The notes under the pieces were generated by a model, which was not told the DNA's origin, did no database searches, and saw nothing but the letters and a program-made list of their open reading frames with translations. From Dehalococcoidia bacterium (lineage in GTDB: Bacteria > Chloroflexota > Dehalococcoidia > UBA6926), in assembly GCA_963666115.2 (NCBI GenBank), contig CAXXET010000007.1, positions 256,595 through 320,594 of the forward strand: a stretch of 64,000 nt of DNA, written 5' to 3'. Of this stretch, positions 22,901 to 58,402 are shown one piece after another (positions within the stretch are counted from its first letter, which is position 1; each line of letters begins with the position of its first letter). Made by a program: the position numbers and the translations under genes.

Positions 22901-24713
22901 GGACTGTGCCCGTGTTGAGGGCAGAGGGCTTGGAATTCGCCGTCCGCATGGTGAAGTTGGCGCCGTTGTTGGCCTGCAGGTAAATCTCCATCTCGTCGAT
23001 GGCGCTGGAAACCTTGTAGAGGCCCTGGTGGCTGCCCAGCGACTCGCGGGTTATCCCCGCGCCGATGTTGCCGAAGTCGATCGGGTCCGTGCTGCTGGCG
23101 GTGTCGCTGCCGCCAGCGGGGGTCGTTCCGACGGTGCCGCCGTCAGAGACGCGCGTCCAGTCGGTTGTTCCGACCTGACGGTAGCGGAGATCGTAGTCGT
23201 TGATGGCGGAACCTCCGTTAGACGGAGCGGTCCACTGCGCCGCAAGCTGCGCGTTGCCGGTAGTGAGGGCGGGGGCTGCCGGGGCGGCGGGCGCGGTAGG
23301 CCCGGTCGTGGTGAAGGACGTCCCCGCCAGTTCCGTCGAGCACGACGAGTCGTGGTAGGCGCTGTAGGAGTAGGAGGTGTTGTTAGAGAGGCTCCCAAAG
23401 GTGTGCGTCGCGCCGCTGATGGCGGATGAGCACGTTCCGGCGGGGGCGGGCGCAGTCTTCTTCACGTGCCAGGCGCCGCTGTGCCCGGCGAGGGTCAGGG
23501 TCGCCTCGGCTCCGGTGATGCTGCCGGCAGTGAGCCAGCCGGGGACGGGCGCGTTGCGCCACTGGCTTGTCGCGCCGCCGTTGGTGGCCTGGACGGCGAC
23601 GGTGGCTGCGGCGGTTGAGGTGACGGTATGGGTGTGGGTGGTTGTCGAATGGTCGGTGGCGATGCGCTGCCACTGGCCGCCGTCCGCGCGGTAGTTGACG
23701 TTGTAGGCGTTAGCACCCTGGCCGGCGTTCCACGTTGTGGTGACTGTGCCGCCGTCCGTGCCGTGCGTGGTGGAGGTGACGGCACGGAGGCCGGAGACCG
23801 CGCAGACGGACGGCGGCGGGACGGTGGCGGAGTTGGTCCAACCGCTTTCACCGGCAGCGTTGCGGGCGCGGACGGCCAGGGTGTAGGTCTTGTTCTTGCT
23901 CCACTTGGCGAAGTTCCAGGACGTGTACGTCACGTTGCTAAGGGCGCGCTTCCAGGTCTTGCGCTTGTTGGTGCTGACGTTCACGTCGTAGCCGGTTGCG
24001 CCGGACACGGGCGTCCAACTGACCGACATCGCTTCACAGGCGCGGCTGAGAGAGACGTTGGCGGGCGCGGACGGTGGCGGATCGGCAGGAACCCAGGGGG
24101 CGCTCGCCGGGGAGTTGCGCCAGTTGCCCCACAGCGTGTTGCCGCCGTCGGTCTTCCCTGCGCGGACGCCGACGACGTAGGGATACTGGTTATCGACGTT
24201 GATGGTGATGCTGGTGGACGAGTGGGCAAAGGCGGCAAGGCTCCAACTCTTCTTGCCGTCCGAACTGTAGGTGACGTGGTACTTGTCCGCGCCAACGACG
24301 GCGGGCCAGGAGGCGGTTATCGAGCCGTCGCTGCGGCTGATCAAGACATAGCTGACGCGAGCGGGCGGGCCGCTGGGATTGTTGGAGGCGGAGTTCCGCC
24401 ACTGGCCCCAGCCGTGCTCGTTGCCAGCGCGGACGCCGACGACGTAGGCCTTCGACGTGTCGATGCCGGTGATGTCGATGGATGTTGTGGCGTGGTCGTA
24501 GGCGGCGAGGCTCCAGCTCTTCTTGTTGTCGGAGCTATAGGTGACGTGGTACTTGGTGGCGCCGGCAGGGGCGTCCCACGATGCGGTGAGGGTCGTGTTG
24601 GCGCGGGTGACGGTGACGCTCGCCACCTGGCCGGGGGCTGATTGGGCGACGGCGGGCGAGGCGGCCACTGCCATGGCTGCCACGAGGATAGCCAGAGCGA
24701 TAATGCTACGCAT
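16956..24713 (-). CDS. 2,585-aa secreted fibronectin type III repeat protein with one GLUG-like module
   Basis: Sec signal [24 protein letters not shown] and GGAGG RBS. Many FN3 repeats (W..P...G..I..Y...Y...GL..G..Y.V.VRA.N..G.G.WS). [22 protein letters not shown]...GGLVG.N repeats...[11 protein letters not shown]. No C-terminal TM. Confidence 0.9.
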
Positions 24714-27700
24714 CCGTTTCCTCCGTGGTCGTGGCCCGGCGCGCGCGCCTGCGGCGGCGCAGAATGATGAACAGGATCAGGGCGAGGAGCAGCAGGCCCG
24801 CGCCGGCGATCACGAAAGGCGCGTAGTCACTCGCGGCTATATCGTCCACCACGTCAGGCAGCGAGACGGCGGTCGCCACGGGAACGGCCGTCGCGGACTC
24901 GTCCACGGGCGCCGGCATGACGACGAGCGCGTAGACACTGAAGCGCGTGAGCACGGAGACCGTCCAGGAATTGCCTGAGCCGTCGACGGCGCAATCGTGC
25001 CGCACGCGCCCCCATCCCTCCGCCTCCACGCGGTACACCCGGGCGCGGTTGTCCGTGCAGGCGGACTGGTCGTTCTCCGGCAGCTTGAACCACAACTCCA
25101 CGCCCTTCAGCCACGTGGTCGGCGCGAGAATATCCGTCCCCGCGATATACGTGTTCACCTCGACCGCCAGGTTGACGAGATTATCCGCAACAGGCGCCTC
25201 GCTCTCGAGGGAGCCGGTGTCCAGCGTCCACATCCGGACTTCAAGGAGTTCCGGCGCGGCCCCCGCCGGGATGATCAGCCGCGCCCGGCCGTCCGGCGTC
25301 TCGATCACCGTCGCGCTGTCCGGCCACACAAGGTCTCCTCCCTCGGACACCTCAGGCAGCGGCGTGGGCGTTGGCGTGGGCGTCGGCGACGGTCCCGGCG
25401 TGGGCAACGGCAGAGGTGTTGGCGTGGGCGTCGGCTCCGGCGGCGGCTCCGGTGTTGGGGTGGGCGTCGGAAGCGGTGTCGGCTCCGGCTCGGGCTCCGG
25501 CGTGGCTGCGGGCGGCGGTGCAGGCGTCGGCGCAGGCGTCGGCGTTGCCTGCGCGGCAGGCGCGGCGGTGGGCGGAGGCGGCAGGACCCTGATCCTCACG
25601 ACGTCCGTGGCGTAGCGGCCCGCCTCGACGTGTATGCCCACGGTCTGGACACGCAGCTCGAAGTGCAGCACGATGGCGTTTTCCACCGTCGGCGCGAGGA
25701 ACGTGGCCGTCAGGGACGACGCGTTGTTGATGGTGACGGTGGCGGGCGGGTTGTCCCCGGTCTGCGTCCACGTGTATTCCAGCGACAGGCCGGGCTTCGT
25801 GTCGACGCCCGGATAGTTGGCCTGGCCTGACAGCCTCACCGTGTCGCCGCTGTACTCGGACCGGTTGTTGCCCGCATCGACGAAGGGGCGCGGGTTGACG
25901 ACGACCCGATTGATGGCGATGCCGTGGTAGCCGGGGTCATGGCTGTACGCGGTGTGGGCCATGATGACTTCGCCGTGAGAGCCGTCGCGGTTCCGTCCCG
26001 CCGTCACGGTGACGGTCTGCGCCGTATCCCAGTTGCTGGGCGTGAACGTGAGCGTCGCCGGACTGACCGTGATGTCCGGATCGCCCGTCTTCACGACCCT
26101 GACAACCACGTCGCTCTCCGGCGCATGCGTTGCCAGGACGACCGTATACGTGGTCGACTCGCCCTCTTCGAGATTGTCGATGCTCGACTTGGAGACGACA
26201 GTGCCGCGCGTCCTGACCATGGCCGGCCCCGCCGCCGTGCTCTCGCCCGCGGCGTTGACGGCGCGGAGTTGGAAGGCATAAGTGGACAGCGGATCGAGGC
26301 CGGTGAGCGTGAAGCCGCGCGCGCCTGAACCGCCGGAGATCGTCGTCCACGTCGCGGACGCAAAGTCGAAGCTGTCGCAGTCGGTCGCGTCGCATCCTGT
26401 CCCCTTGGCCTGCAGGTACTCCCACCGGCTGATGACGGAGTCCGCCGGAACCGGATCATCCCACGTGAACCTGGCCATGCCCCACTTGGGCAGCGTGAAC
26501 GCGAAGTTCCTGGGCGCGGCGGGCCTGATGAGGGCGGTGTTGTCCGTCGTCAACTGGTTCAGCGTCGGCTCGCCGTTCCCTGCCGCGTTCACCGCCCGCA
26601 GTTGGAAGCTGTAGGACATGCCCTTCTTGAGGCCGGTCACCGTGTAGCTGGTGCGGACGAAGACGGCCCGCACCTGGAAGTCATAGGTCGTGCCGGACGT
26701 GAGATTGTCCACCTGGTGGCTCGTCTTGTCGACGCACGTGCTGTCGTCGGCGGCTGTGCAGATGTCCACCCACGCGCCGTACTCGGTCGCCGTGCTCTCC
26801 TTCATCCGGTACTGCCACTTGAGGAAATGGGTGGTGTCGGCGGGCGTGCTCCACGTCAGCGTGACGCTGCTGCTGGCCGTCGCGCTGCCGTCAAACGCGG
26901 ACGTGCCGACGGTGGATGACACGTTCTTCCAACCCGTGTTCGTGGGAGGCGTGGCCGTCGCCTCGTCCAGCGCCGGATGAACCACCGGGCGAATCTCAAA
27001 GTCGCAGAACGCGCCCGCGGGCGAGCACGTCGCCGTGTACGACGTCGTCGTATCGCCGCTGTTCGATATATCCGTCCAGCCGAACGGGTCGGTCGCCGGC
27101 CAGTCATCCGCCGCCGCCTTCGTCCGGTACTGGTACTTGACGATGGTGTTGTCCTTCGGATCAGTCCACGAGAGCGTCTCCTCGTGGTTGGTGTCGGAGA
27201 ACGTCGTGAAGTTCCACGTCTTGTACACGACGAGCGGGAGGACATAGCTCAGCCCGTCCTGGATCACCGGCGCAACCTGGAAAACGTAGTCCGTATCGAC
27301 GGTCAGGCCGGTCGCGGTGTAGGACGTGGTGGTCGCGCTGCTGCCGGCGATGTCCGTCCACGCGCCAAAGCTCCCCGTCCCCGACTTCTGCCGGTACTGC
27401 CACTTGATGATCCGGGCGTTCTGCGGGTCGCTCCACGCCAGCGCGATCTGGTTGGCGCTGCCGATGTTGGCCAGGCTCCAGCTGCCCACCGCGTCGAGCG
27501 TGACCTGCATCGCATCGTTCGGCTTGAACGCGCGCGCCTGGAAGGTGTACTCCGTGTTGTTGGTCAGGCCCGTCACCCGGTACTGCGTGGTGGTTGCCGT
27601 GCTGTCCGGGATGTCCGTCCAGCTTCCGTAGGCGCCCGTGCTCTTCTGCCGGTACTGCCACTTGGTGATCGCGCTGTCATTGGGATCGGCCCACTTCAGG

Positions 27701-28668
27701 AGAACCGCCTTGTCCTCGGCGAGGGCGACCAGGCTGCCCTCCATCGTCCGGTACTGGTAGGTCGTGATGGACGGGTCGTTCGGGTTATTCCACGTCAGCG
27801 TGGCATTGCTGATGTCCACCACCACGTTGGCCGTGAACTGGTCGGGCATCTCCGGTATCAGGACGATCTCCACCGCGTCAGACGGCACGCCTCCGTCCAC
27901 GGCGCTGCTCGCCACGTTCGCCGCGCGCACCTGGAAGCGGTACACGTCATTGGCCAGGCTCGTCCTGACGTACGACCTGGTATCGCCGTCGCTGCTGGGA
28001 ACAGCCCGCCACTCCGCCGCGTTCAGCATGGTCGTCCATTCCGTCTCCGTCGTGTCCGTGTCGCCGCTCGCGGCGCGCCAGTCCCATGACGTGATGGACG
28101 GATCCGCCGGGGATGGCGGCGCCCACGTGAGCGTCACGTTGAAGTCGTTTGTGCGCGCCACGTACGTATCGCTGAGGGTCAGGCTGGCGGGCTTGCCCGG
28201 CGTGAGCGTGACGGTGGCGGTGGCGGACGCCGCGCCCTTGCCGGACGAGTTGACCGCGCGCACCTGGAACTGGTAGCCGCCGGGGCCGGTGACGCCGAAG
28301 GGGATGGTGTAGCTGCGGGTGTTGTTCTTGCTGCCGGGGATGGCCGTCCAACCGGCGCTGTTGAGGTCCTGACGCTCGGAGGTCGCGCGGTACTCCCAAC
28401 TCAGGATGGAGGAGTCGGCAGGCGAAACCGTCCAGGCGACCGAGACCTGGAAGTTGTTGGTGGCCTGGAGGTACGCCTTGCTGGCGGTCAGCGTTGCGGG
28501 CGCGGCAGGCTTCGCGGGCAGCGAACTCGTCGCGGTGGCCGACGCGGGGCTGATGCCGGCCGGGTTCACCGACCGGATCTGGAACTTGTACGCGGTGTCG
28601 TCGCTCAGGCCGGTTGCCTCATACGACGTGGCGGACGCGCTCGCGCTGATGGTCGTCCACGCCTTCAC
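24706..28668 (-). CDS. C-terminal segment of the giant protein (FN3, Calx-beta-like, PKD-like, Pro/Thr linker, TM anchor), as-sequenced ORF
   Basis: Begins mid-FN3 (KAWTTIS..SYEATGL). VDAG...[17 protein letters not shown]-like unit, PT/PE linker, TM helix [19 protein letters not shown]. Confidence 0.8.
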
Positions 28669-49600: not shown

Positions 49601-52600
49601 CGTAGTTGCCCGACGTCCGGTTGATGAACAGATTGCTAATGGTGTAGGTCGCCGAGTTCCCATTGAAGTTGCCCGTGTATTCGCCCGTGCCGGCCGTGCC
49701 GCCGATGGGGTCCCAGCCTACGCCGGTGTTATACGGCGCGACATCCAAGTCGAGGCTGGCGCTGAGCTCATAGCCCGTGCAGGAGGGGTTCCCAGTCGTG
49801 TTGCTGGCGATGTTGACGACGGACTCGCTGCATCCCATGTTGGCTTCCGCGTTCGGGAACGCCGTCGCATAGTTGCTGTCGGTCGAACTGCCGTCGCCGT
49901 CCAGGTCATAGCGGATGGCGTTGAGCTGGGCGACGCTGGAAACCTCGATCAGGCCATCGTTGTCGGCGTCGTAATCGACGGTGGCCGGGCTCGTGGCGTG
50001 CGTCTTCGTGCTGACGACGTTGGACGGGGCTGCGTCGATCTCATTGGTCCTGACGGCGATGACGCGAACGTAGTAGGTGGTGTCAGCGGTGAGGGCGGGC
50101 GTGGGATTGATGGTGTAGTTGGAGGTTGTGCCGCCGGGAACATCGACCTTCTGGCCGGACGGGATGCTGTCCCACCCGGAGTTGGCGGTATTCCACTCCA
50201 CCCGGTACCCCGTCGCCCCAGCCCCCGCCGTCCAGTCCGCCCGGATCTTCGTCCCGTCAACCGAAAGCTTCAGCGCCGTCGCCTTCGCCACGTTGTCATC
50301 GTCGCTCACTGTGATCGTCGCGTTGCTGATCGTGAGCGCGACCACGTGCGAATCCACGCTCGTCGTGGACAGCGAGATGCTCCGCGAGTCCGGGCTAGTC
50401 TGGTTCACCGTGTCGTCCACCGCCGTCACCGTCACCGTTCCCGCCGTCGTCGTTCCCGCCGAAATCGTGATCGACGTCGCGCTCAGCGTGAACAGCGTCG
50501 CGTCCGCGGTGGGCAGTGTCACGACGATGTCGTCCTCCCACGCCCCGCTCGGCGTCGCCGTCACGGTGGACGTGATGACCCGGCTCAACCCCGTGTCCAC
50601 GCGCTCCCAGATAGTCGTCGGCGACGCCGTAATCGTCACCGTCACCCGCTGCTTGGCGAGCGTATGGCTCCCAAAGTCCAGGACGGGATACTGCGACGCC
50701 GTGCCGAAGTCCCACGGATCGTCGTTCCCCGGCGCCCCGTCCACGTTCACGTCCCAGTTCGCGTAGATGCCCGTCTCCGACCTCGGCGTCTGGAGATCGG
50801 TCGTGCTCTTGCCCTCCGGCGCGTTCGTATCCGCGTCGTCCGCCTCGCCCGACGTCGTCGTGTCCCAATAGCTGTCGCTGATCGTTCCGCTGTTGCTTCC
50901 CGCGAACCCGCCCTTCGTCGGCGTCCCGCTGCTTTCCGTCGTCGCGCTCAACGCGCCCAGCGAGTAGCTCGCCGTGATCGTCGCCCCGGTCGCGTTCTCC
51001 GCGACCAGCCCGCCGATGTCCGTATTGAGCCCGGTCGCCGACACGTCGCCCGTCGCGTACGCCGCCGTGATCGTTCCCTTGTTGACGGCAACCAGGCCGC
51101 CCGCGTGTGAATCGTTCGCCGCGGCGCCGGTCGTGTCCGTGCCCCGGTTCGCCGTCACCGCCCCCGCCGCGTAGCTCGCCTCGATCGTGTCACTCATGTC
51201 GTTCAGTCCGACGAGTCCCCCGGCGTACCCCTCGTTCGCGTCGTGCGTCGAGGCTGTCACGGCGGCGCGGGAATACGCGGAGCGGATGGCTCCGTCATTC
51301 CACCCGACCAGGCCGCCCGCGTAGGCCGTCTTGTCCGTCCCCGATCCCGTCCGCTTTGCCGTCACCGCGCCGAGCGACCACGACTGCTTGATCGTGCCGC
51401 TGTTCTTGCCCGCCAGCGCCCCGACGTAGACCGCGTCCCCCGTCGTGCTGCCCGTGACGGAGACGCCGGCGAGGGCGACGTTTTCAACCGTTGCGCCGGA
51501 GCCGATCACGCCGAACAGCCCCGCGTACGACGTGCCCGACGTGGACGACAGGTTGATGGTGAGGCCGCTGATGGTGTACGGCCCGCCGTCGCCGGACCCG
51601 TCCGTGTCATTGTTGCCGTCGAAATCGCCCGTGTACGCCGTTGTGCCGTCGCCGATGGGGACCCATCCCGCGCCGGTGTTGTGCGGGGAGACGTTGAGGT
51701 TGAGATTCGCCTTCAGCTCATACCCCGTGCACGCCGGGTTCCCCGTGTTGTTGCTGCTGATCGTCGCGCCCGTCTCGCCGCACCCCATGTTGTCTTCCGC
51801 GTTCTGGAACGCCGTGTCATACGCCGACTGGTTCGCCGAGTCGTCCACCTGCCCGTTGCCGTCCAGGTCATACCGCATCGCGTTCAACTGCGCGACGTTG
51901 GAGACCTCGATCAGCCCGTCGTTGTCCACGTCGTAATCGCCCGTCCCGGCGCTCGCCCGCGTCGTCGTGCTCACCACGTCGGACGGCGGCTCGTCCGCCC
52001 CCGTCTTCGTCGGCAGCACGCGGAAGTAGTAGAGGGTGTTCGTCGCCAGCCCGCTCTCTACCGTGTGCGTCACCGTGCTGCCGCTTGAAATCGCCTTCGA
52101 ACCGGTGAGACTGCCCCAGCCTGCCGTCGTATTCGCGGTTGACCACTGCACCTTGTAGCCGGTGGCATCGGAGACGACGTTCCAGTCCACCTGGACTTTC
52201 GCCCCGTCAACGGAGAGCTTGACGCCCGTCGGCTTGGCGAGTTCGTCATCGTCATTGATCGTGATGCTGATGTCCGTGCCCTTGCTGATCCACTTCGAAT
52301 CCGTCGGGTACGTCGACTGCGCCAGCGATATCGACCTCGCGTCCGGGTCTTCATTGGTGAAGTTGTTGACCGCGTTGAGCGTCGCATCTGCCGACGTCGA
52401 TCCCGCCGGAATCGTGATCGTCGTCGCGCTCGTCGTGTACGCCGCGTTCGTCGGCAGCGTCACCACAACGTCCACGTCCCACGCCGTATCCAGCGTCGCC
52501 GTGATCGTCGTGGACGTGGCGCGCGTGGAGCCGCCCGTGTTCGATTCCCAGATCGTCATCGGGCTGGCGGAGAGCGTCACGACAGCCCGCTGGTCACCGG

Positions 52601-55600
52601 CAGTGTGGCTGCCGTACTGCAGCGTCGGATACTGGTTCGCCGTCCCAAAGTTCCACGGATTGTCGTTGCCCGTCGTGCCGTCGAAATCGAGGTTCCATGC
52701 GGCATAGATGCTGCTGCCCGTGCCGTACTCAGTCGGCGTCTGGAGTTCGCCGGTCGTCTTGCCCGTGCCGACTGCGCTCGTTGACTGGCCGGAGGTCGCC
52801 GTATCCCAGTAGGAGTTGACGGCACTGCCGGCGCTGAGGCCGACCAGTCCGCCAACGCCGCCCTGAGTGGCGGTGCCTGTTGTGGTGGGCGTTCCCGTGG
52901 AGTAGGAGCCGGTGACGGCATCGCTCAAGAGGAATCCCAGCAACCCGCCGGCCATGAGAGGACCGCTGCTGGAATTGGTCGCCGAGACATCGCCGCGGGC
53001 ATAGCTGGCCTTGATCCCGTTCGTGCCGCTGTGGTCTCCAACCAGTCCTCCTGCATAGGCGCCGGGAAGGGACGTGCCGACTGCGCTTGCGACGACATCG
53101 CCAGCCGCATAGCTGGCGGCGACGACATAGTTGTTGTTGGAACTGGTGCCCTGCATCGTGCCAACCAGTCCCCCCGCCTGGACCGTCGGGGAGCTCTGCG
53201 TACTCGTGACGTGGCTCGTCACGTCGGCCAGAGAGTAGCTTGAACTGATAGGCGACGTATTCGCTTCACCGACCAGCCCGCCAATGAAGACATCCTTGCT
53301 GGCAGCGGTGAAGGTGATCGGTTCGGACGCTGATTCCCCGGCCCTGACTCGTCCAGTCGTATAGCTGTCCTCAATCTCCGATCCGCCTCCGATGCGGCCC
53401 GCCAGGCCGCCGACGTAGACGTTGTCGCTTACGGAGCCGTTCAGCGTAACATCCACGTTGTCCAGCGCAACGTCCTCAATGCTCTTGTTGCCGCTGTAGA
53501 TATAGGCGAAGAGTCCGGCGTATCTGCCCGACGAGCGGTCGATGAATAGGTTGCTTATCGTGTACGGCCCGCCGTCGCCGGTGTCCGTGTCCGCGTTGCC
53601 GTCAAATTCGCCGGTGTACTGGCTGCCGCTGACGCCGCCGATGGGGAGCCATCCGTCGCCGGTGTTGTATGGGGAGACGTTGAGGTCGAGGTTCGCGCGG
53701 ATTTCGTAGCCCACGCACCCCGTCAAGGGGCACCCCATCCCCGGTATCGCGTTCAAGAACGCGGCCAGGTAGTTGGTCCGATCCCCGGAGGCCACCGTGC
53801 CGTCAGCGTTGAGGTCCCACCGGATGGCGTTGAGTTCGGCAAGGTCGGTGACTTCGATGTAGCCGTCGTCGTCGGTGTCATGATCATCGCCGACGCCGAC
53901 GTTGACGGTGCTTGACCAGTCTCCTTGCTTGGTGCTGCTGGCCCTGGCGCGGATGCGGACGTTGTACGTATTGGACGCGCTGACGCCCTCGATGTCGTCC
54001 GTCACGGTGGCGATGGCGATGTTGTCCGAGAAGGTCGTCCACGTGCTGGTCGTGCTGATCTTGTACTGGAGGTCGTAGCCGTCCGTCGCGTCCGCGTTGC
54101 GCGTGTTCACCGCGTTCGGCGCGTCCCAACTCACCGTGATGTCATACGTGTTGTCGCCCTGCTTGGCCGCCGTTGCCGTCACGCCCGTCACGTCATGGAT
54201 TTCATCATCCTGGATAGCGATGGTGTCCGACGTGCCAAAGGTGACGGAGTTGGCAGGCGTGACGACGGCATCCGTCAGATCGGCGCTGACGTCCCCGTCC
54301 TTGGCGCTGTTGCCGGTAGCGGTGAACGTGCCGGTGTTGGACGTGTCGCCCTTGGAGATCGTGATGTCATAGGAGTAGCGCGACGAGGACGGACTGACGA
54401 TCCGCACGTCATAATTCCTGGTGTCCGAGCCCATGGAGGCGGTGAGCGTGGTAGTTGAGCCTTCCGCGACGGTTGTGGACGCGGCGGTGATGGTGAGCGT
54501 CACGGGCTGCTGGTCACCCGGCACCGGCGTCGTTCCGCCCTGCGGCGCGAAGCTGAGGACAGGGAACTGGCTGCTCGTCCCAAAGTTCCAGGGGGTGTCG
54601 GTCGTTCCATCGCCGTCGATGTCGGTGTCGTCCCACGTTGAATAGATGCCGGTGCTCCCATAGTCGGTGGGGGTCTTCAGCTCCGTCTCGGTCTTGGTCC
54701 GGGCGCTAGGGTTCGTAATGTTTGAGGAGAAGGTAGTCACCGTGCCGCTGCCGTAAATGGCCGTGAGGGTGGAGCCTGTGCAGTTGACGACGGTCGACGT
54801 GCTGCAGGCCGCGGCGCTGCTAAAGAAGTTGGTGCGGAAGTTGCCGAGGTTCGTGCCTCCGGGATGGCCAACCGCGCCGGTGGCATAGGCGGCGCGGACC
54901 ACGCCGCCGGAGTCCACTTGGCCGACGAGACCGCCGCCTGCGGTGTACCCGAGGGGATCAGTGGTCGTGCCGGCGGTGTTGTTGTTCTCCGAGGCCGTCA
55001 CGCTGCCCCACGCGTACGCCGCTTCGACGGTTCCCCCGACCCTGCCCACCAGCCCGCCAACATACCTGCGCCCCTGGTCGTCCCAGTTGCTGCCGCTCGA
55101 CTTGAAAGTAACGGCGCCGGCGGCGTACGAGGCGATGACCTTGCCGCCGGACTTGACGTAGCCGACCAGCCCGCCCACCGCGTACTCCTGCTTCGTGTTG
55201 GTTGCGGACGCGCCGCCGGTGGCGGTCACCACCGCGTGGGAGCTTGAACCGGAGACCGTTCCGCCGCTCTCCACGATGTTCACCAGCGCCCCGATGCCCT
55301 TGTCGTCGCCGCCGTCCCCAGCGACCGTCACCGTGCCCTCGACGCTGACGCTCGTGACCTTGCCCGACACTGTGTCCGCGAGAATCGCGGATTGAGCCCC
55401 GCTGGTGTGGCCGGTCTTGACGTGAAGCTGCTTGATCTCGCCGGATGACCCGATGGTCTCAAAGAGCGGACGCCTGTCATTGTTGGTGATGGTGTTGTTG
55501 TTGCCGTGGAAAGTCGCAGTAAAGGTGCCGGGAACCAGGTAGTTCGTCCCCGCGTTCGTCGGACTCGCCGTAATCGTCAGATCAGAGTTGATCTCATAGC

Positions 55601-56502
55601 CGACGCAGCCGCCTGTACACGTCGGGTTGCTGCCGCCGAACGCGGTTTGGTACGTGCTCGCGTTGGACTCTGGCGTGCCGTTGCCGTCCAGGTCCCACTG
55701 CATGGCGATGAACTGCGCCTCAGTGGTCACGTCGATGAGCGTCGCGCTCGCGGCGGCCCTCGCTCCCTCCTCCTGCTGCGATTGCGCGAAGGCGATCTCC
55801 GGCTCCGGGGTGGGCGCGGGAGTGGGAGTCGGCGCCGGCGACGGTTCCGGCGGCACGGGCGGCGTGTACGGCGGGCTCGATTCGGAGTTGCGCCAGCCGC
55901 TGAAACCGCCCGCGTTGCGCGCGCGCACCGCGACGATGTACGCGGCGTCGTTCGCTATTCCTTTAATAGTGATGGCCGTCTCGGCGTGGTCGAACGCCGC
56001 CAGGCTCCAGCTCGCCGCCCCGTCCGCGCTGTGCGTGACGTGGTAGAAAGTCCGCGCCCGCAACGGCGGGCCATGAGGCCGTGAGTTCGCCGTCGCCGCG
56101 CGACACCGTGACGGACGAGGGGGCGGGCGGCGGCGTGGCGAACGGCGGCGCGGCGTCGGAATTGACCCATTCGCCCGCGGCGCCGCCGGAGACCGCCTGC
56201 ACGGCGGCGTAATACGTCGTGGCGTTGTTCACCCCGTTCACGGTGGCGGATGTGCCGATGACCCCGGTTCGGACGCGCGTCCAGCTATTCTTGGCGTCGT
56301 CGCTGGTGTTAACGTTGTAGGAGTCCGCGCCGTCCACCGCGAGCCAGTCAACGATCAGCGTGCCGTCGCCCCTGCTGACCGTGACGTCGGGCTCCGACGC
56401 GCTGCCCTGGTAGGCAAAAGAGGGCGATGCCGCCAAAAGGAGCAATGCCACAGCCGCGACCACCAGCAAGTTCGTCCTGCGAACACGGCTTAACCGCGCC
56501 AC
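24706..56502 (-). CDS. Giant (~10,597 aa reconstructed) membrane-anchored surface protein/adhesin, split by three +1 frameshifts
   Basis: GTG 56502 with GAGGT RBS and signal peptide (..[20 protein letters not shown]). Removing one base at each of 56047-49, 29186-88 and 28693-95 gives one continuous frame to TAG 24706. Ends in a TM helix plus RRRRR tail. Confidence 0.85.
25355..25585 (-). repeat. Pro/Thr/Glu-rich low-complexity linker
   Basis: [56 protein letters not shown]... Confidence 0.85.
28854..56063 (-). CDS. Main 9,069-aa segment of the giant protein (GLUG-like/Calx-beta-like/FN3 modules), as-sequenced ORF
   Basis: 27-kb stop-free frame, Thr/Ser/Gly/Ala-rich. Last ~110 codons after GNWGNWTA are out of frame. 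Confidence 0.85.
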   Translation of the reverse strand: MRARTFYHVTHSADGAASWSLAAFDHAETAITIKGIANDAAYIVAVRARNAGGFSGWRNSESSPPYTPPVPPEPSPAPTPTPAPTPEPEIAFAQSQQEEGARAAASATLIDVTTEAQFIAMQWDLDGNGTPESNASTYQTAFGGSNPTCTGGCVGYEINSDLTITASPTNAGTNYLVPGTFTATFHGNNNTITNNDRRPLFETIGSSGEIKQLHVKTGHTSGAQSAILADTVSGKVTSVSVEGTVTVAGDGGDDKGIGALVNIVESGGTVSGSSSHAVVTATGGASATNTKQEYAVGGLVGYVKSGGKVIASYAAGAVTFKSSGSNWDDQGRRYVGGLVGRVGGTVEAAYAWGSVTASENNNTAGTTTDPLGYTAGGGLVGQVDSGGVVRAAYATGAVGHPGGTNLGNFRTNFFSSAAACSTSTVVNCTGSTLTAIYGSGTVTTFSSNITNPSARTKTETELKTPTDYGSTGIYSTWDDTDIDGDGTTDTPWNFGTSSQFPVLSFAPQGGTTPVPGDQQPVTLTITAASTTVAEGSTTTLTASMGSDTRNYDVRIVSPSSSRYSYDITISKGDTSNTGTFTATGNSAKDGDVSADLTDAVVTPANSVTFGTSDTIAIQDDEIHDVTGVTATAAKQGDNTYDITVSWDAPNAVNTRNADATDGYDLQYKISTTSTWTTFSDNIAIATVTDDIEGVSASNTYNVRIRARASSTKQGDWSSTVNVGVGDDHDTDDDGYIEVTDLAELNAIRWDLNADGTVASGDRTNYLAAFLNAIPGMGCPLTGCVGYEIRANLDLNVSPYNTGDGWLPIGGVSGSQYTGEFDGNADTDTGDGGPYTISNLFIDRSSGRYAGLFAYIYSGNKSIEDVALDNVDVTLNGSVSDNVYVGGLAGRIGGGSEIEDSYTTGRVRAGESASEPITFTAASKDVFIGGLVGEANTSPISSSYSLADVTSHVTSTQSSPTVQAGGLVGTMQGTSSNNNYVVAASYAAGDVVASAVGTSLPGAYAGGLVGDHSGTNGIKASYARGDVSATNSSSGPLMAGGLLGFLLSDAVTGSYSTGTPTTTGTATQGGVGGLVGLSAGSAVNSYWDTATSGQSTSAVGTGKTTGELQTPTEYGTGSSIYAAWNLDFDGTTGNDNPWNFGTANQYPTLQYGSHTAGDQRAVVTLSASPMTIWESNTGGSTRATSTTITATLDTAWDVDVVVTLPTNAAYTTSATTITIPAGSTSADATLNAVNNFTNEDPDARSISLAQSTYPTDSKWISKGTDISITINDDDELAKPTGVKLSVDGAKVQVDWNVVSDATGYKVQWSTANTTAGWGSLTGSKAISSGSTVTHTVESGLATNTLYYFRVLPTKTGADEPPSDVVSTTTRASAGTGDYDVDNDGLIEVSNVAQLNAMRYDLDGNGQVDDSANQSAYDTAFQNAEDNMGCGETGATISSNNTGNPACTGYELKANLNLNVSPHNTGAGWVPIGDGTTAYTGDFDGNNDTDGSGDGGPYTISGLTINLSSTSGTSYAGLFGVIGSGATVENVALAGVSVTGSTTGDAVYVGALAGKNSGTIKQSWSLGAVTAKRTGSGTDKTAYAGGLVGWNDGAIRSAYSRAAVTASTHDANEGYAGGLVGLNDMSDTIEASYAAGAVTANRGTDTTGAAANDSHAGGLVAVNKGTITAAYATGDVSATGLNTDIGGLVAENATGATITASYSLGALSATTESSGTPTKGGFAGSNSGTISDSYWDTTTSGEADDADTNAPEGKSTTDLQTPRSETGIYANWDVNVDGAPGNDDPWDFGTASQYPVLDFGSHTLAKQRVTVTITASPTTIWERVDTGLSRVITSTVTATPSGAWEDDIVVTLPTADATLFTLSATSITISAGTTTAGTVTVTAVDDTVNQTSPDSRSISLSTTSVDSHVVALTISNATITVSDDDNVAKATALKLSVDGTKIRADWTAGAGATGYRVEWNTANSGWDSIPSGQKVDVPGGTTSNYTINPTPALTADTTYYVRVIAVRTNEIDAAPSNVVSTKTHATSPATVDYDADNDGLIEVSSVAQLNAIRYDLDGDGSSTDSNYATAFPNAEANMGCSESVVNIASNTTGNPSCTGYELSASLDLDVAPYNTGVGWDPIGGTAGTGEYTGNFNGNSATYTISNLFINRTSGNYVGLFGKLNGATGRKVQDVALEDVDVTLNLSTASSTSVYVGGLAAYSATDIEDSYVTGRVRAGESASSPVTLTGNVNVYVGGLVGELNASSIDSSYSLADVTTNVAGGSSNVSGRAGGLVGYAQGTGGSVDGSYAAGSVTASVVTTGTPTVSAGGLVGDHSIAGAGASLRASYARGAVSATISKTGNARAGGLVGYLATGAVTGSFSTGAATATATTGTITGGAGGLVGHKNTGTAPASYWDTDTSGITTTEANQVGTGKTTSELQSPTGTTGIYASNWNLDLDGSTGNDDPWDFGSANQYPTLDYGTLTAGDQRVVVTLSVAPMTIWERALTTPPRVNTATVSAALDTEWTEDVVVTLPTNAAYTLSAATITIAAGATAGTATSTLTAVNNLVDAAHNPVALAQADHPAATKWASKGTDVTVTINDDDELSKPTGVKLTVDGSKIRVDWTAVPNATGYTVQWNSTSSTAWSSPSSHTISNGSTVTYSITTGLTANTRYYVRVLPTKSGADEPPSDVVDIKTHAATPATVDYDLDNDGLIEISNRAQLNAMRWDLDGNGQVASGDQTNYNNAFPNAEDNMGCNESVVSIASGNNTGNPVCDGYELRASLDLNAAPYNTGAGWVPIGDGTTAYTGDFDGNNDTSTTDNTDVNGEKDGGPYTISNLFINASSGQYFGLFGKVSGGTIEDVALVNVNITRTGTSATDIDMGGLAGVADSAIEDSYSTGTVRAGYDATNKITLSAAKGVNVGGLVGQNGKSNTSASKIVSSYSTAVVTAYVDGGTNNTSMRIGGLLGYVHSKVDASYGAGAVTGTVTNGGSGSLVHAGGLGGSLIATGAVRSSYARGDVSATANAGTNAAGGLIGFIVSGGSVTASYSTGAVTTAGAGSSKFTGGLVGTNNGTVSTDSYWDSQTSGITTGASGTPKTTANLQTPTEYGTQSTDIYKDWDIDLDSVTTGTQDGWDFGTANQYPTLKYGEQSADDQRLTVTLSVNPVTIYESTTGGSTRDTTSTMTATLDSTWNEAVVVTLPTNAAYTMSATTITIAAGSTTGTATLTAVNNFTNESPDARVISLAQSTHPTDTKWAVKGTDINITITDDDELTKPTGVRASVDGANIQVHWNQVTSATGYELQWNTTSNTAWTSPSTRAITGGSTLNAKITGATVGTTYYIRVLPTKTGADEPPSDVVSITPKSSVAGTGDYDDDNDGLIEVDTLLQLNAMRYDLNGDGVVDDASNQTAYDTAFPSAEANMGCNESVFTISSNNTGNPACTGYELSANLDLNTSPYNTGAGWVPIGDGTTGYTGDFDGNNDTSTTDNTDPNGEKDGGPYTISGLTINLSSTSGTSYAGLFGVIGSGAEIKHVALTGVDVTGSTSGDSVYAGALAGKNSGTITVSWSLGEVTAKRTGTGTDKKAYSGGLVGWNDGTIRAAYSRATVTASSHDSNEGYAGGLVGLNDTSDTIAASYATGAVTADRGTDTTGNADNDSHAGGLAAVNKGTITASYATGDVGATGLNTDTGGLAGENASGATITASYSIGAATATTGTGGTGNTGGFTGSGSGTVTNSYWDTTTSGIADDAGTDAPEGKTTSALQTPTSETGIYASWDVNVDGASGNDDPWDFGTASQYPVLDFTGLTVSKQRATVSMTVSAVTIWERADTGLSRVNTSTITATLSGAWEDDVTVTLPTPVTGNNATHTLTSTTITLSAGTTTPGTTTLTAVDDSVDQTTPDSRNVSLSATSTDSPYIAAIFVPTSAETITINDDDNVSKATGVRLSVDGTKIRADWAPVTGATGYKVEYDDDSAFGSSTTGTVDSGSTTNYRTPALTANTKYYVRVIATKTGELDSPASDVVSATTKSSSGTGDYDTDNDGLIEIDSLLKLNAIRYDLDGDGAADKYDSNNDGDYTDTGEYDYSTQYAAAFPSAEDNMGCHESAVSIASNTTGNPTCDGYELTANLDFDTDDDGDVDTNDYVDLDNDNTKDSNEDAIIWNGGLGWNPIGGGSTAYTGEFHGKDGSTQYTIENLFIDRDATTTGTKYYAGLFGRIDTGAVIQDVALTGVSVTLESTSTEDPQPEVYAGGLVGYQKAGSITGSSVRGAVKAVTKAGNSTQSTFASHAGGLVGYKEAGDIISSYARATVTAEQNAQYGTLHAVAGGLVGYHKAGNVIASYSTGIVNAKVSDDNGVAYAGGLVGEHNGGDIKAAYSYAAPKASNAGSSNTSVTLYVAGLVALQSGGNITASYSTGAPTTDKDGATTGVTETKGGLVASNTSGTTTDGYWDTELSGITATGQGTGKTASQLTTPRQYGTGNNDIYKDWDIDLDSVTTGTQDGWNFGTASQYPVLKHGLTPANQRVTVTMSATPTPIWERALSTPSRVNATTITATLSEKLLNDVVVTPPTDAAYTLGSSTMTITAGSTTATVSLTAVNNRVNAANKQVNLATGAGSSDPRVSFASATPTFTINDDDSISAPPNLVLARQDATEFEINWGRMGTDVASYKVQHKLSTSSTWSTVVTVANSDTGCRVSNNTKCHYTVTSTAGSLYNTRVTAVPSASGEDDSPYATLNVGAGIDYDIDDDGQIEVSSLLQLNAIRYDLDADGTAASGSTASYALAYPSAAPSMGCVSNTCNGYELRANLDFNTNDSTPTADNPTGANTGDTYWNNGSGWNPIGSTAGTAYTGGFDGNMDTDSTGDGGPYTISNLFQNWTTGNYVGLFAYLNSADDEVWHVALENVDITFDNTGGSGASSDVYAGALAGRSGTDITRSYTTGTVTAKAKVTATGTYTYAGGLVGRIMDADILSSYSWADVEADATTSTEATRVYAGGLAGLTGEVPFTNYPDTNVTASWAAGDVTAKAKSGTPDTGDAYAGGLIGASYRGSDIRASYARGDVSATGATGNVYRGALVGFITGTTDNQAPSAITASYATGALSGTTPNPASRCGIIAQKQDGAQINNSYFNGDTLGVTGCGNDNGSSKTTAELQTPTGYGTGTDIYVDWDLDFNNDTNNDDPWDFGTSSQYPVSKHAGSTDNLTVADQRPVVNLTASPTTIYEKVGGATTSTVTATMTEDWDEDIVITLPQAPDGLTVGGTNQSSGFLTFTSGNNGNWGTAQTATVKLAADPGTGKTVVVDFTRLSVHEPEVTPKYLTFTGGTSGTWDTTQNISVVFLAEPTSATTRVSITKNSSNVTTGYKVDLNVYRQAYNLSSPTITLAVGATTGTVTLTAQNDYSDLINGSATLTLLAQPTNSKWVVKGAGANPALTITDDDELGQVTGVSAAQKTDTHGNPAGGATVSWSTLTGATGYVVEWKSGTEIYTSTNQVVAGQANATSADIPAASLTPGTTYDIRVYGTKSGSDHGLSSSETTLTYKGLLVFSGATLAVEEPNSGSATGTYTVKLSVQPSASVTLNLTRGTGSSTTTPTNPTFSPSSLTFTTSNWNVAQTVTVTVTKDSDGVDDVVNILHTATTTGADFSGVTATVVATETDNNKPPTSTSFTHYVKAKSSSSRTIMAVSQSFRYEDENGDKLSYVLIETLPASAQGQLQLVQKGRFAGKPACRNKPNHHLCRDTVTPVTAGQYAPNDQLQISTTRKTLYFYPSDSFSSATFTYRVVDSSNNVSDDSYTATLMLEGLAPARINDLTATGGNTQVSLGWTDPADATITQYEYRYEQSGNQGSWSDWAEVPIALTSADTLTFNSGNYSTAQTANVQLAAAPAAEVKVTLVESGVTFSPSELTFTTQNWNTTQAVSVTLATAPTEDVTVAVSSGIWRNATALTVTGLTNNTLYTFQLRAKNAGGRSPVASISATPKPPPKPHQPKGYTATGSATGVALAWSTPAPTAPTITKYQVRQRVQEGTLSAAPGNGEVFLWWDNPLDPKVGNYEYRYKAGAETYGNWTNMPQLSNTSYTVTGLTNGVKHTFQVRERTHDTSNPPLAAMANVGTYRYAVLDSSNKVTLTWQKAESSNTYRWEYRQRTGAGSYGAWTLISTNWETTTWTSGALTAGTHYTFQVRRLVYVGSQPTPITWEFTALANGTTSKTITWTDPDKDYIDSYQVHRHVRTGATSTGAWTGIAGSNPTTTSYTATNLAAGSFYTFQIRPMYTRLLDDATATPSTTEGWTDITSSGATTVSHSPTGLVRGVAYSFQVRAVNSSGAGPSTEWAYGTRQAAQPTGLTATPGDTNVTLAWTAPSPADPTIDKWQYKKNAETNWTDICNALADSGCSTTTSFLVTGLTNGTAYTFTIRAVNETGNSPNSTTTTAVTPRAAPAKPTGFTAAGKVESVALAWATPSPANSHITGYEYRQTAPVNGVTAWAGDRSIAISWDSPSDTTGITKWQYSAERTANNYGVWADIPNSSASTNSYTITTETNGTPLANGRTYKFRVRAVNSNTTGGLTTLAYNGQVELHWTTPNNASSVHKWQYRYKTTGAYGSWNTICTYHWFGNPRCPNLNVTTVNLLTNGTQYTFQVRGIDSSDNLVNTVLGDATGRPLAAGAAIGGGTARPSATAGWTAISSSSATTIAHTVSSLTNNRLYAFQVRARIHNSLGAASDVKYATPKALTAKPTGLAARSGENATATLTWPTTNTATSWQYSKDNGGTWSAVTPTTVGTNYTYQATGLTNGTAVTFKVRGVNANSQAGPASDGATATPRLLPAPTGVALAKRDSSLYATWTDPSDSTIDKYEYRVTAKDNTSTVAIPWTEVCNSTADSNCATTTSHTTAATLTNGTAYDYYLRVVNTAGQTSAASAKVSETPLALPSAVTNLEAQVHNTQNVFYWDAPTDTTITKVQTGLSLGAGTTTWTDHTIDLTAATVTFTTQNWNTAQTVSVTITDADSNRPTTSLRVRLKPQDGVVFTPAILTFPGGRNWGGSQNVAVKLAAQPSENVTVDIESGFQLNGFTTRNSGLYDGSEYTFKVRAFNASGTGAEATVKFTPQGAPLAPTGFKATAKHQSVLLTWDKFAEPDTHARAGAASFEYVQIKPVTGFAVWRAIPDSDKDTTSYTVTGLTNGVEHEYRIRAVNGHLYGTASSKVTVTPVPVPAAPTSLTAEAGDKYVDLTWTNPADTTVLKQQVRVDTGSWKDIVLPLVTARAAAFTTTDWSTDKTISVSVPANLQRPSVDLTVRLTPQDNVIFTPAQITFPAATWKQPQSVKVKLASAPSENVSVSTTSGFAITAAKVRIAKLTNGTEYSFTVRAVNSAGNGASATAATATPGPVPAAPTLTGSTPGDGEVRLTWTYGGTPAATSWQYRIATSSTRNNTTTWTWSGWGNVASSTGTTRTATVDNLTNGTEYRFAVRGKNSYGSGASSNVRAATPVSVPAKPVNFTVTAGDTQATLNWTDPSDSSITKWQYAQKTSSTYGSWQDIKKLTTHLNAYKTVAGNGSVLLSWDNPSDSKIEKYEYRKGSSSTSFGAWTDIPSSSASTTSYRVTGLTAGAGHYFQVRSVSANVTTLTSHIVTGLTNGTAYTFKIRAANASGNSADSDEVSATPYTVPAKPTGLSATGGNTQVTLSWTKPTSTITSWQFRYALASASYGRWTTITPTGTTTLSYTKTGLTNNSAYKFQVRAVNLIGNGAASDAAQATPVSGVPEAPASLTASGGNEQATLTWTKASNARWVNSWEYTTDDGTNWVAMTNTSDSTRSYTITSGIANATDYTFKVRGVNDAGNGAASSGADARTAPSKPSGFTAVAKTTKTPVVLYTTGQADLTWTDPNDTSITSWQVREWTVGTGGMHVLPGNASATLGWDNANDSTITSWQIREWTSNLGDFISRQNSSTAVTLEWTNPNNSSIAKFQYSPDGTLWTDIPCTGSCTLTTINSHSFTRTYTQNALGVYQIRGLTSSNTAVTVSGLKIWTTIPSSGATTTSRTVTGLKNGQAYRFQVRAVKNTTPETALSEVSVTPASGGGWATIPSSGATTTTHTVTRLTHDTTYNFQIRAVNASASGPASDPSSDVTPTLPTPDTPTGLTAVEGAGQVTLTWTNPNNSTITSWEYSTDNGTNWTAVPSSSASTTTYTVTNLTNGTSYTFKVRAVNDAGNGTASAGVTSTPKAKPAAPSGFTAMGGNGQVVLRWTGPSNSTITSWQYQQKTSGAWGSTWTTVPSSDSTTRTYTVPSLTNNTTYTFRLRAVNISGNGASSDAKTATPVAAPAKPTGFRATPNVQKVKLTWTNPNNSSITSWEYKQDTGNWTTIPSSGASTTTYTIGSLTNDTEYTFRIRAVNGTGNGTQSDAKSATPRALPGKPTGLTATGGNTQVSLSWTNPNNASIARYELRYGHPSASWGQWRAIASSATTTSHTVTGLDNSSKVRFQIRAVNVSGAGPASDSATAVPVASAPNKPTQLNATSRDGSALLRWFNTGHKYFHSWEYRYKSGGSYGDWVTVNTEQTPGYTTHTVGSLTNNTTYTFQVRSKNDAGASPISDTATVIPLARPSTPSGLTATGGDGQATLRWTKTTDTSTTGYRYQYRYWEAGEGGLEAVPGNAQVVLNWTDPNNSNITKWQYRYKEGTENWESWADISSSSATTTTHTVTSLTNGASHQFEVRPYTTGAGSALDTVTTTPSTSEGWKSISGSNHNSTTHTITSVANGKSYKAQLRAVNNARPNGVGDAATSSKFVQYPAKPTNFTATGGNGQATLGWDNPDNSSITKWQYRKKTTGTYGSWTQMSTSASTTTYTVSSLDNGTAYTFQIRAVNATGNGAASDASSPTLYPAKPTGLTAEPGDRRVVLTWDDPDDSSITGYQYSKDGGSNWSTISNSKATTTSYTVTQLTNNTPYNFQIRAVNGTGTGVATDSVSQTPRAVPPQPQDLTATATGTNVSLSWTAIPTTGNNITGWEFRQRKGSGNWGNWTAHFQQRRQHQLAQHYVWAEHRHDILVPGARQELQQRVWAGLGRRLHRHHASPTEGTELGGGAAEGDALLDKPELPVHHQVADAALDGQQCGLHRRQGRRHAGDHAGVDESQ
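39590..55750 (-). repeat. Eight tandem ~2-kb coding modules
   Basis: D.D.DGLIE.....LNA.R(Y/W)DL...G motif near 55740, 53870, 51930, 49970, 48000, 46010, 44030 and 41930, each closed by W(D/N)FG...Q(Y/F)P. Confidence 0.85.
55963..56502 (-). CDS. N-terminal segment of the giant protein (signal peptide + FN3), as-sequenced ORF
   Basis: Protein-like until ...WPAVAGADF, then continues as YHVTH in the next frame. Confidence 0.75.
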   Translation of the reverse strand: MARLSRVRRTNLLVVAAVALLLLAASPSFAYQGSASEPDVTVSRGDGTLIVDWLAVDGADSYNVNTSDDAKNSWTRVRTGVIGTSATVNGVNNATTYYAAVQAVSGGAAGEWVNSDAAPPFATPPPAPSSVTVSRGDGELTASWPAVAGADFLPRHAQRGRGGELEPGGVRPRRDGHHY

Positions 56503-56614
56503 AGCGCGACCTCGCCGGTTTAAACCCCGGTTTGATCCGCGCAAACGGGTATACTCCTCCCCACCAGAGGCTGATTCCAATTGACAAGCATAGTGGGGCG
56601 GCGGTGATATAGGG

Positions 56615-58399: not shown

Positions 58400-58402
58400 G
58401 CC

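Follow-up and report, generated by a model that had tools for sequence, protein, structure and literature searches.

A gene for a predicted 10,597-residue membrane-anchored surface protein lies broken into four reading frames in the assembly of a Dehalococcoidia bacterium

We examined a window of 64,000 nucleotides from the genome assembly of a Dehalococcoidia bacterium (contig CAXXET010000007.1, positions 256,595 to 320,594 of the forward strand; all positions below are those of the window unless a contig is named). Its minus strand carries, at 24706-56580, four successive open frames: A (55963-56580, 205 aa), B (28854-56063, 9,069 aa), C (28619-29107, 162 aa) and D (24706-28668, 1,320 aa). 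Dropping one base at each of 56047-49, 29186-88 and 28693-95 converts the four frames into a single stop-free frame of 10,597 codons. The whole gene occupies 24706..56502 (-), from a GTG start at 56500-56502 to a TGA stop at 24706-24708, and measures 31,797 nt as assembled and 31,794 nt minus the three extra bases; a GAGG sequence lies 8-12 nt upstream of the GTG start at 56502. Reading through the breaks with an X for each four-base step, we obtained pieces of 151, 8,952, 163 and 1,328 residues with zero stops and a total of 10,597 residues plus stop. This agrees with the codon arithmetic of the earlier note on this DNA, which had counted (31797-3)/3 = 10,598 codons including the stop. One uninterrupted coding sequence of >30,000 bp is reached only after removing three bases; two of the removals are backed by public contigs and the third by homology. 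An open frame of 10,597 codons at 65% G+C after three single-base steps is not a chance event; the gene is real and single, and in nature it is very probably intact.

Three-frame translation placed all three junctions where the earlier note had located them, each with one base too many. At J1 (56047..56049, -), where frame A passes into frame B, a TTT run of the coding strand is one base over, the sequence reading GCG GAC TTT C TAC CAC. At J2 (29186..29188, -), between frames B and C, the surplus base is in a CCC run (ACG GCC C ATT TCC, with the protein reading GNWTA up to the break), and at J3 (28693..28695, -), between frames C and D, it is in another CCC run (AAG ACC C GGC GCC, GVKT up to the break). 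The earlier note had further claimed that each correction restores an FN3 consensus across the break. This holds for J1, which lies within an FN3 profile match at residues 109-190 (profile 5-85, E 1e-8), and for J2, which lies within a full-length match at residues 9041-9131 (profile 1-88 of 88, E 2e-26). For J3 it holds in a modified sense only, at the boundary of a domain insertion: J3 is outside any contiguous FN3 domain and lies in the linker that joins the end of an inserted FN3 to the second half of the FN3 hosting it. The host N-half (frame C, profile 4-42) and C-half (frame D, profile 43-81) are complementary there and score 67 bits when spliced. The slightly odd consensus noted at J3 is thus explained by its position between the inserted domain and the resuming host.

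Unbroken equivalents of J1 exist elsewhere. The second FN3 domain of the neighbouring paralogue, gene E, aligns with our read-through and continues without a break, and the motif SWPAV.GA.(S/K/R)YHVTYS.. is likewise unbroken in the homologous proteins P0001-P0003, P0010 and P0011 (45-60% identical). The locus is annotated as four separate genes, a reading to which we give almost no credence. In each piece an in-frame GTG or TTG does occur close to the 5' end, and the database lists the 1,320-aa piece as a protein in its own right. However, such starts fall in the middle of FN3 strands (the first ATG/GTG/TTG open reading frames, or ORFs, in pieces B, C and D begin LRARTFYHV.., VRAKNSNN.. and VKAWTTIS..), no signal peptide follows any of them, profile matches cross the breaks, and public contigs show the unbroken form. 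The single gene proposed earlier is thereby upheld, with no segment having a signal-peptide start of its own and just two hydrophobic stretches in the whole read-through.

Public data were compared over 28000-30000, a stretch that includes J2 and J3; J1 is 27 kb away and falls outside it. Four of the seven listed runs hold part of this stretch (a marine metagenome, an organism-labelled run and two sponge metagenomes, from three studies), all of them as contigs and none as RNA. The base at 29186 is missing from X1, represented by one 1,550-nt contig that differs from the window by ~3% (depth 10.4 of 10.4), and from X2, represented by one 979-nt contig with otherwise 0 differences (depth 7.8 of 7.8); X1 and X2 come from two studies. 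Apart from this, the X1 contig has just two indels, at 28864 and 28867, which compensate each other. The base at 28693 is missing from X4, in one 204-nt contig (depth 2.2 of 2.2), X1-X3 having no cover at this position. The earlier note had proposed mapping raw or short reads to the three sites to see whether the extra bases are confirmed. At the two sites covered they are absent, at J2 in two runs and at J3 in one low-depth contig, an outcome in favour of its reading that comes from data independent of the consensus of this assembly.

These contigs argue against a recent pseudogene, in which the three extra bases would be true mutations and the gene would have been inactivated recently or would yield only an N-terminal stub of 178 residues. 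Such decay would fit the presence of all three shifts in the deposited assembly, the ease with which giant accessory surface genes are lost, the lack of an orthologue in 21 congeneric species and the evidence at J1, which comes from homology. Against it stand the contigs with the intact form, from two runs at J2 and one at J3 (one contig matches the window over 979 nt in all but that base), the lack of any further lesion across 10,597 codons, and the state of other genes in the same assembly, where dnaA, asd and ilvC are broken alike, hardly tolerable to a living cell.

The latter breaks emerged from a genome-wide frame-change scan (2.07 Mb, 9 contigs), which looked for a codon-position signal that switches frame well before the stop of the old frame. 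From 638 overlapping same-strand frame pairs the scan returned 98 candidates, including J1 and J2 and missing J3, with a +1 shift in 61 and a +2 shift in 37. After discarding pairs with a piece >1,500 aa or <150 aa, we tested the best 20 by Pfam on both pieces. Five of the 20 are clear splits of a single gene: a DUF2298 gene (G000:C4:141809-144224, where G000 is the genome and C4 the contig; Pfam profile 1-88 in one piece and 89-488 in the other), ilvC, encoding ketol-acid reductoisomerase (KARI; C6:430889-431934, N-domain 2-112 / remainder plus C-domain), asd, encoding aspartate-semialdehyde dehydrogenase (C9:11412-12435, N domain / C domain), a nitronate monooxygenase (NMO) gene (C7:140319-141466, 4-207 / 213-330) and dnaA (C8:65596-67213, N-domain / ATPase plus C). 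One further pair is a probable split (MFS halves), one is a false positive (yidC/jag), and the other 13 could be assigned to neither class. Since a cell cannot live with all three of dnaA, asd and ilvC broken, their breaks are assembly indels, and the three breaks in the giant gene resemble them in kind. The assembly is in need of polishing, and gene counts taken from it are unreliable.

The same evidence bears on the idea that the extra bases are real and that programmed +1 ribosomal frameshifting, or homopolymer phase variation, regulates the protein. All three breaks require the same +1 shift, and at J1 the TTT is followed by CTA, which one would expect to be rarely used for Leu where G+C is high; J1 in this respect resembles the slippery-plus-hungry-codon sites known from prfB and Ty. 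However, J2 (GCC-C) and J3 (ACC-C) offer the P-site tRNA no re-pairing, the public contigs simply lack the extra base, and housekeeping genes break alike, in both shift directions. Phase variation was rejected on the length of the runs, which are merely 3 nt; three-base runs are too short for the usual slipped-strand switches. Taken together, the breaks in dnaA, asd and ilvC and the public contigs lacking the base make a recent pseudogene improbable and a programmed shift a good deal more so. The three breaks are most likely single-base insertion errors of the assembly in 3-nt homopolymers, not decay.

The read-through protein has a simple overall layout. Thr, Ala, Ser and Gly make up 46% of its residues, and just two stretches of its 10,597 residues are hydrophobic, a signal at residues 7-31 and a helix at residues ~10,558-10,582; since only these two exist, there are no internal signal peptides. 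The signal peptide (56413..56502, -), assigned by sequence and hydropathy, has a basic n-region, a hydrophobic core and an SFA cleavage-type end, and the signal peptides of P0001, P0010 and P0011 lie at the same distance from the first VTVxRGDG motif. It is followed by two N-terminal FN3-type domains (residues 29-190; 55932..56418, -) that were found with Pfam and with our FN3 profile. Beyond them lie eight tandem modules (residues 242-5627; 39621..55778, -), a junction region of 267 aa (residues 5628-5894; 38820..39620, -) with no family assignment (best Pfam match E 0.16), and the FN3 stalk (residues 5895-10077; 26269..38819, -). Two Ig-like domains come after the stalk (residues 10078-10307; 25579..26268, -), the second of them weakly PKD-like, and are followed by a low-complexity linker of ~75 aa rich in Pro, Thr and Glu (25354..25578, -), which contains tandem repeats at 25360-25544.

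Next to the membrane lies a 153-aa domain (24895..25353, -) that belongs to no Pfam family and has no PDB sequence match at E <= 1. In the Atlas it met only unnamed clusters (0.92-0.94), the nearest named one, ZU5, being at 0.88 and below the trustworthy level, and a word-index protein search returned the protein itself as the sole match. The C-terminal transmembrane (TM) helix, assigned by hydropathy, and the poly-Arg tail that follows it (24709..24828, -) complete the protein. Attachment to the cell surface is accordingly a prediction from hydropathy and not from a listed anchor motif: a scan of the whole protein for LPxTG, NPxTG, RTX GGxGxD and HExxH found none of them, a single LAxTG at residue 7208 is far from the C-terminus, and the NCBIfam model GG_III-CTERM (NF041738) scored 17.0 bits against a cut-off of 22 (E 0.004).

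Most of the architecture read earlier from the sequence is borne out by these results. The signal peptide and single C-terminal TM helix correspond to the only 2 hydrophobic stretches, and Sec export without a type I secretion system (T1SS), autotransporter or sortase signal agrees with the lack of GGxGxD and LPxTG in the protein and of an Omp85 match in the genome, whose completeness score is 100%. DNA periodicity and alignment confirm the eight large modules, which can now be identified as of GLUG / IgA1-protease-N type, and the count of about 50 FN3 domains made by eye compares with 58 and 60 matches, half-domains included, obtained over the whole protein with two self-built profiles. The PKD-like domain is weakly supported: the second domain after the stalk matches K319L-like_PKD at E 9e-4 and fn3_6 at E 8e-3 in Pfam, both below the cut-off. 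The proposed Calx-beta-like domain found no Pfam match at E <= 1 and is not upheld. The size of the protein is as claimed (10,597 aa), but the term "exceptionally large" needs tempering, as proteins of at least 10,000 aa form a recognised, if rare, class in the accessible part of 10.1101/2023.11.21.568195.

The eight modules, of 626-776 aa each, show as a ~2-kb periodicity in the DNA, with 60-82% identity (repeat families D9, D12 and D20), and are alignable throughout. Each comprises a segment with a DxDxDG motif, a beta-helix of six or seven GGLVG-type GLUG repeats, a closing motif of the type SYWDT.TSG, an Ig-like domain that ends in DDD and one FN3 domain. Pfam reports Glug in module 4 (43 bits against a cut-off of 20.5) along with fn3, and Peptidase_M26_N in the first half of the protein (E 2.5e-9). 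We modelled the helix part with AlphaFold2 from a 9-row alignment (the eight modules plus one from gene E) and obtained a pLDDT of 70.7 and a pTM of 0.76; the module core, residues 120-390 of the model, reached a pLDDT of ~80-95 and is all-beta, with short strands throughout. A Foldseek search of this model against the PDB gave as best match 3n6z, a putative IgA1 protease of Bacteroides ovatus (E 6e-5, probability 1.0, TMt 0.56), followed by 6xja_P, the S. pneumoniae IgA1 protease (probability 1.0); the G. haemolysans IgA1 protease was matched too. Weaker matches were to beta-helix lyases, hydrolases and phage depolymerases (E 0.05 or worse, probability 0.13 or less). No M26 catalytic-domain family was present in the Pfam output, no HExxH occurs in the 10,597 residues, and no glycoside-hydrolase or lyase family was found by Pfam. 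Since Glug and M26_N matches and the fold occur without HExxH or a catalytic-domain match, the modules are the non-catalytic GLUG helix of IgA1 (M26) protease N-domains, repeated eight times.

The stalk accounts for 53 of the 60 matches to the canonical FN3 profile, again counting half-domains, and Pfam fn3 matches 23 stretches in one half of the protein alone (E 1.9e-170). Within the stalk we observed a recurrent pattern in which the first half of an FN3 domain is followed by one or more whole FN3 domains and then by the second half, and this nesting is the most unusual feature of the protein. At least seven FN3 domains are interrupted in this way by one to four complete FN3 domains. In six units the break falls at profile position 42|43, which we take to be the loop between strands C and C' (strand names from FN3 structures), and from the insert the chain returns to the host's second half through a conserved linker of 12-18 residues. 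A seventh, U7569 (residues 7,583-7,740), is broken later, at profile ~57-62, after strand C'.

The simplest arrangement is that of U8673 (29934..30506, -): a host N-half, one complete inserted FN3, an 18-aa return linker and the host C-half. U9141 (28564..29101, -) contains J3 at the boundary between its inserted FN3 and the host C-half, and profile matches place U6073, with three inserted FN3 domains, and U6523, with two, at 36057..38306 (-) and a split-FN3 stretch at 33282-33818 (-). U7930 (residues 7,942-8,203; 31902..32735, -) is doubly nested, its order being N, N, whole, C, C, with matches to profile 3-41, 12-41, 15-79, 47-81 and 44-82. At residues 9,548-9,972, four whole FN3 domains stand between host halves.

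Four units were tested with a profile built from 16 plain repeats of the giant protein. Their N-halves match profile 4/5-41/42 and their C-halves 43/45/46-79/82, with inserts of 1, 1, 3 and 2 whole FN3 domains. When the two halves were spliced, each unit gave one full-length match (5-79/82) of 63-84 bits, compared with 77-117 bits for the training repeats. The arrangement also occurs in other proteins. A HMMER scan of 1.84 billion representatives with one 191-aa nested unit as query gave 6,960 proteins at E <= 0.001, and in 13 of the best 150 representatives the best stretch is colinear with the whole nested unit. All 13 colinear segments display the triad of N-half (profile 2/4-36/42), whole domain (10-78/82) and C-half (41/45-78/82), with an entry gap of 1-8 residues, a return gap of 12-18 and recurring motifs, for example LGDP.ATP. 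A short entry and a long return would fit the geometry of a loop-inserted domain with its ends at opposite poles.

Structure prediction was uninformative on this point. An AlphaFold2 model of the nested unit from a single sequence had a mean pLDDT of 46.4 and is unusable, and two MAFFT alignments of the unit (A1 and A2) mixed host and inserted halves and were left unused. A complex prediction of the host N-half against the C-half (alignments A4 and A5) reached 0.24 against a mark of 0.32, without controls, and speaks neither for nor against the pairing of the halves. A literature search for nested or split FN3 domains found no description, which is weak evidence of absence. Judging from sequence, we see an even chance that the host halves fold together and produce a fibre with rigid FN3 side-branches, and that such a 'matryoshka' FN3 unit, instead of being peculiar to this gene, is a conserved and unnamed component from which giant bacterial surface proteins are built, since the nested unit is the best-matching stretch in 13 of the best 150 public representatives. 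If it folds as its sequence suggests, the nested unit would be a new way of building a branched protein fibre from a very common domain.

The giant gene has a companion. Gene E (16956..24713, -), downstream of it, starts from an ATG of its own and encodes a paralogue of 2,585 aa, read as secreted, that combines a signal peptide, FN3 domains and a single GLUG module but is without a TM anchor. The stop of the giant gene and the start of gene E overlap by 8 nt; judged by this arrangement, the two genes are probably co-translated, and the product of gene E may associate with the giant protein. A promoter scan upstream of the giant gene found one promoter-like site only, on the opposite strand, and a promoter and terminator scan at the 3' end of the two-gene unit (16500-17100) found none. 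A 99-codon frame and a PIN-domain gene (16435-16881, +) that it precedes and overlaps lie just past gene E on its 3' side (window 16142-16881), and the two are probably a toxin-antitoxin pair of VapBC type. The neighbouring genes otherwise belong to ordinary metabolism (carA/carB, pyrK-like, CoA-transferase and CoxM/CoxG, along with the PIN toxin and a GAF protein), and no secretion or sorting genes were found among them. On the other side of the giant gene, window positions 57700-62100 have 73-74% G+C compared with ~64% elsewhere and carry long frames on both strands without a Pfam match.

The nearest carB relatives in a species-representative collection are from Dehalococcoidia metagenome-assembled genomes, at 86, 67 and 65% identity, and parts of the stretch 28000-30000 are present in marine and sponge metagenome runs. 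In the genome, scored 100% complete, neither Omp85 nor a penicillin-binding protein (PBP) transpeptidase was matched, and for this reason the host is probably a monoderm without a normal murein wall. Dehalococcoides has been described as a monoderm of this kind. One Mur-ligase-type match and one sortase (C6:113732-114148) are present. Open frames of at least 1,200 aa take up ~8% of the genome, and many are Thr/Ser-rich. A second giant GLUG/FN3 gene lies at G000:C8:1-20619 (-), in frames of 2,123, 3,981, 520 and 576 aa separated by frame changes; it runs off the start of the contig and accounts for 7 of the genome's 13 Glug matches. At G000:C4:54122-79992 there are three Thr/Ser-rich frames of 2,825, 2,776 and 2,655 aa, the first two of which end, as the giant protein does, in a TM helix and basic tail with no LPxTG.

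The giant gene itself is narrowly distributed. The C-terminal 497 residues match in 35 of 41 genomes (G000 included), but outside G000 the matches are short, reach at most 48 bits and cover the linker and PKD-like parts, and the nested unit matches in one of the 21 other genomes of the genus, over the inserted domain only. No orthologue was found in the 21 other species, which makes this an accessory gene specific to the strain or species. Scanning JGI metagenomes with the 300 residues that follow J1 gave no relative, and a word-index search with the 250 residues after J1 found nothing above 59% identity, that is, homologues and not the same gene. Two of the homologues, P0010 (417 aa, on a 254,662-nt contig) and P0011 (406 aa, on a 6,504-nt contig), are N-terminal fragments with the same start architecture. 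Both contain Arg/Gly/Pro-rich, out-of-frame-looking sequence, P0011 at its C-terminal end and P0010 internally, after which the sequence becomes recognisable again. Disruption of this kind seems to affect related giant genes of other public assemblies too.

Considering all of this jointly, we think it likely that one intact gene, broken in the record by assembly errors, encodes a 10,597-residue TM-anchored fibrillar adhesin or surface fibre. The Sec signal peptide would export the N-terminus and leave the product as a type-I membrane protein, held in the cytoplasmic membrane by the C-terminal TM helix, with the poly-Arg stop-transfer tail predicted to be cytoplasmic by the positive-inside rule. 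Outward from the membrane the order is the 153-aa domain, the Pro/Thr linker, the two Ig/PKD-like domains, a stalk of ~45 FN3 domains, the eight GLUG modules and, at the tip, two FN3 domains. The FN3 array could act as a long spacer of, by our estimate, ~0.2-0.3 um if extended, at ~3.5-4 nm per FN3 domain. Linker and stalk would project the eight beta-helix modules away from the cell, where they may act as multivalent surfaces, possibly dependent on Ca2+, that bind a ligand in the host matrix, on particles or among glycans.

Several points weigh against this reading, both as to the gene and as to its function. At J1 the evidence is homology only (paralogue E, P0001-P0003, P0010 and P0011), and at J3 it is a single contig at depth 2.2. 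X2 may come from the window's own source sample and hence may not be an independent strain, though it is still an independent type of data. The frame-change scan yields about one candidate per 20 kb at most, and three breaks in 32 kb are somewhat above this average; by missing J3 it also showed that its sensitivity is limited. With no orthologue in 21 other species of the genus, conservation is no argument for function; none of the 7 listed runs is RNA, which says nothing about expression. No catalogued adhesive domain was found in the protein, Pfam giving fn3-type, Glug/Peptidase_M26_N and weak Ig/PKD matches only, and the GLUG helix is not known to have an experimentally defined ligand. The genome also encodes one sortase.

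The same gene could serve another purpose, as a cell-coat or glycan-capturing structure: the protein would be part of the outer layer of a wall-less cell, or its modules would bind or cut polysaccharides for nutrition. The organism is apparently without murein synthesis, and the share of its genome in frames of at least 1,200 aa (~8%, many of them Thr/Ser-rich and including the second GLUG giant on C8) is in line with this, as are the weaker Foldseek matches to beta-helix lyases, hydrolases and phage depolymerases. However, the only confident structural matches are to non-catalytic IgA1-protease N-domains, Pfam finds no glycoside-hydrolase or lyase family, and a protein of 10,597 aa encoded once per genome is a costly way to build a coat. 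We therefore regard a coat or glycan role as unlikely and favour the adhesin or surface fibre.

The gene makes up 1.5% of the 2.07-Mb genome and is hidden in the record as four unrelated ORFs, with the 1,320-aa piece entered as a separate protein. Such breaks probably cause giant surface genes of uncultured bacteria to be under-counted, because the assembly breaks dnaA, asd and ilvC as well and homologous N-terminal fragments show out-of-frame tails. The giant protein is also a candidate for how a streamlined, apparently wall-less Dehalococcoidia cell holds on to sponge matrix or particles, and its parts are separable.

We compared the protein with known systems that share one or more of its parts. 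Its module core resembles, in sequence and fold, the IgA1 protease / Peptidase M26 family (S. pneumoniae ZmpA, PDB 6xja; B. ovatus BACOVA_03286, PDB 3n6z). It has the N-terminal GLUG beta-helix of that family and lacks the zinc-metalloprotease catalytic domain with HExxH; the helix, moreover, occurs eight times and not once. With the RTX / T1SS giant adhesins (LapA, SiiE and MpIBP) it shares a very long stalk of tandem beta-sandwich domains that places binding modules distally. Unlike them, it has no RTX repeats, carries a Sec signal at the N-terminus where they have a T1SS signal at the C-terminus, and has the opposite polarity, with a C-terminal anchor; those adhesins belong to diderms, and the present host has no detectable Omp85. 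Compared with sortase-anchored LPxTG proteins, it has the hydrophobic stretch and basic tail but no motif before that stretch, and in its genome one sortase and one Mur-ligase-type protein were matched, but no PBP transpeptidase.

Among large bacterial proteins, West-Roberts et al. (10.1101/2023.11.21.568195) distinguish, in the accessible part of their text, a class >10,000 aa and giants of 30,000-85,804 aa. As far as that text goes, our protein is alike in passing 10,000 aa, once the three extra bases are dropped, and in its predicted extracellular location and attachment-type domains, and differs from the giants in being far shorter, in having one TM helix versus numerous ones and in having no SecA-DEAD domain by Pfam; nor does that text single out the Chloroflexota among the phyla rich in such large genes. 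FN3 proteins are reported to be enriched in sponge symbionts and have been linked to adhesion (PMC11706023). The giant protein resembles these FN3-rich 'eukaryotic-like proteins' as an FN3-dominated secreted protein of an organism present in sponge and marine metagenomes, but the surveys, in the part of PMC11706023 available to us, give domain counts per genome and no descriptions of single giant genes, their anchoring or nested FN3 units.

The closest parallel is with the fibrillar adhesins (SasG or Cna type of S. aureus). The giant protein shares with them a signal peptide, a distal part outside the stalk, many beta-sandwich stalk domains in a long array and a predicted anchor at the C-terminus, and it is several times longer than the classical examples. 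It differs in having no LPxTG/sortase signal, its anchor being a plain TM helix and poly-Arg tail, and in its distal part of eight tandem GLUG modules and its stalk with FN3 nested in FN3. According to the accessible text of PMC8286594, the layout of these adhesins in monoderms consists of a distal binding part, a repeated stalk and a C-terminal anchor, with 1 to 73 stalk domains per protein and with TM helices in ~20% of those without a known anchor. By the definition of fibrillar adhesin-like proteins given there, the giant protein has the tandem stalk domains, is predicted to be attached to the cell surface and showed no known adhesive domain in Pfam. Though it thus falls short of the formal definition, we read the protein as a fibrillar adhesin of giant kind.

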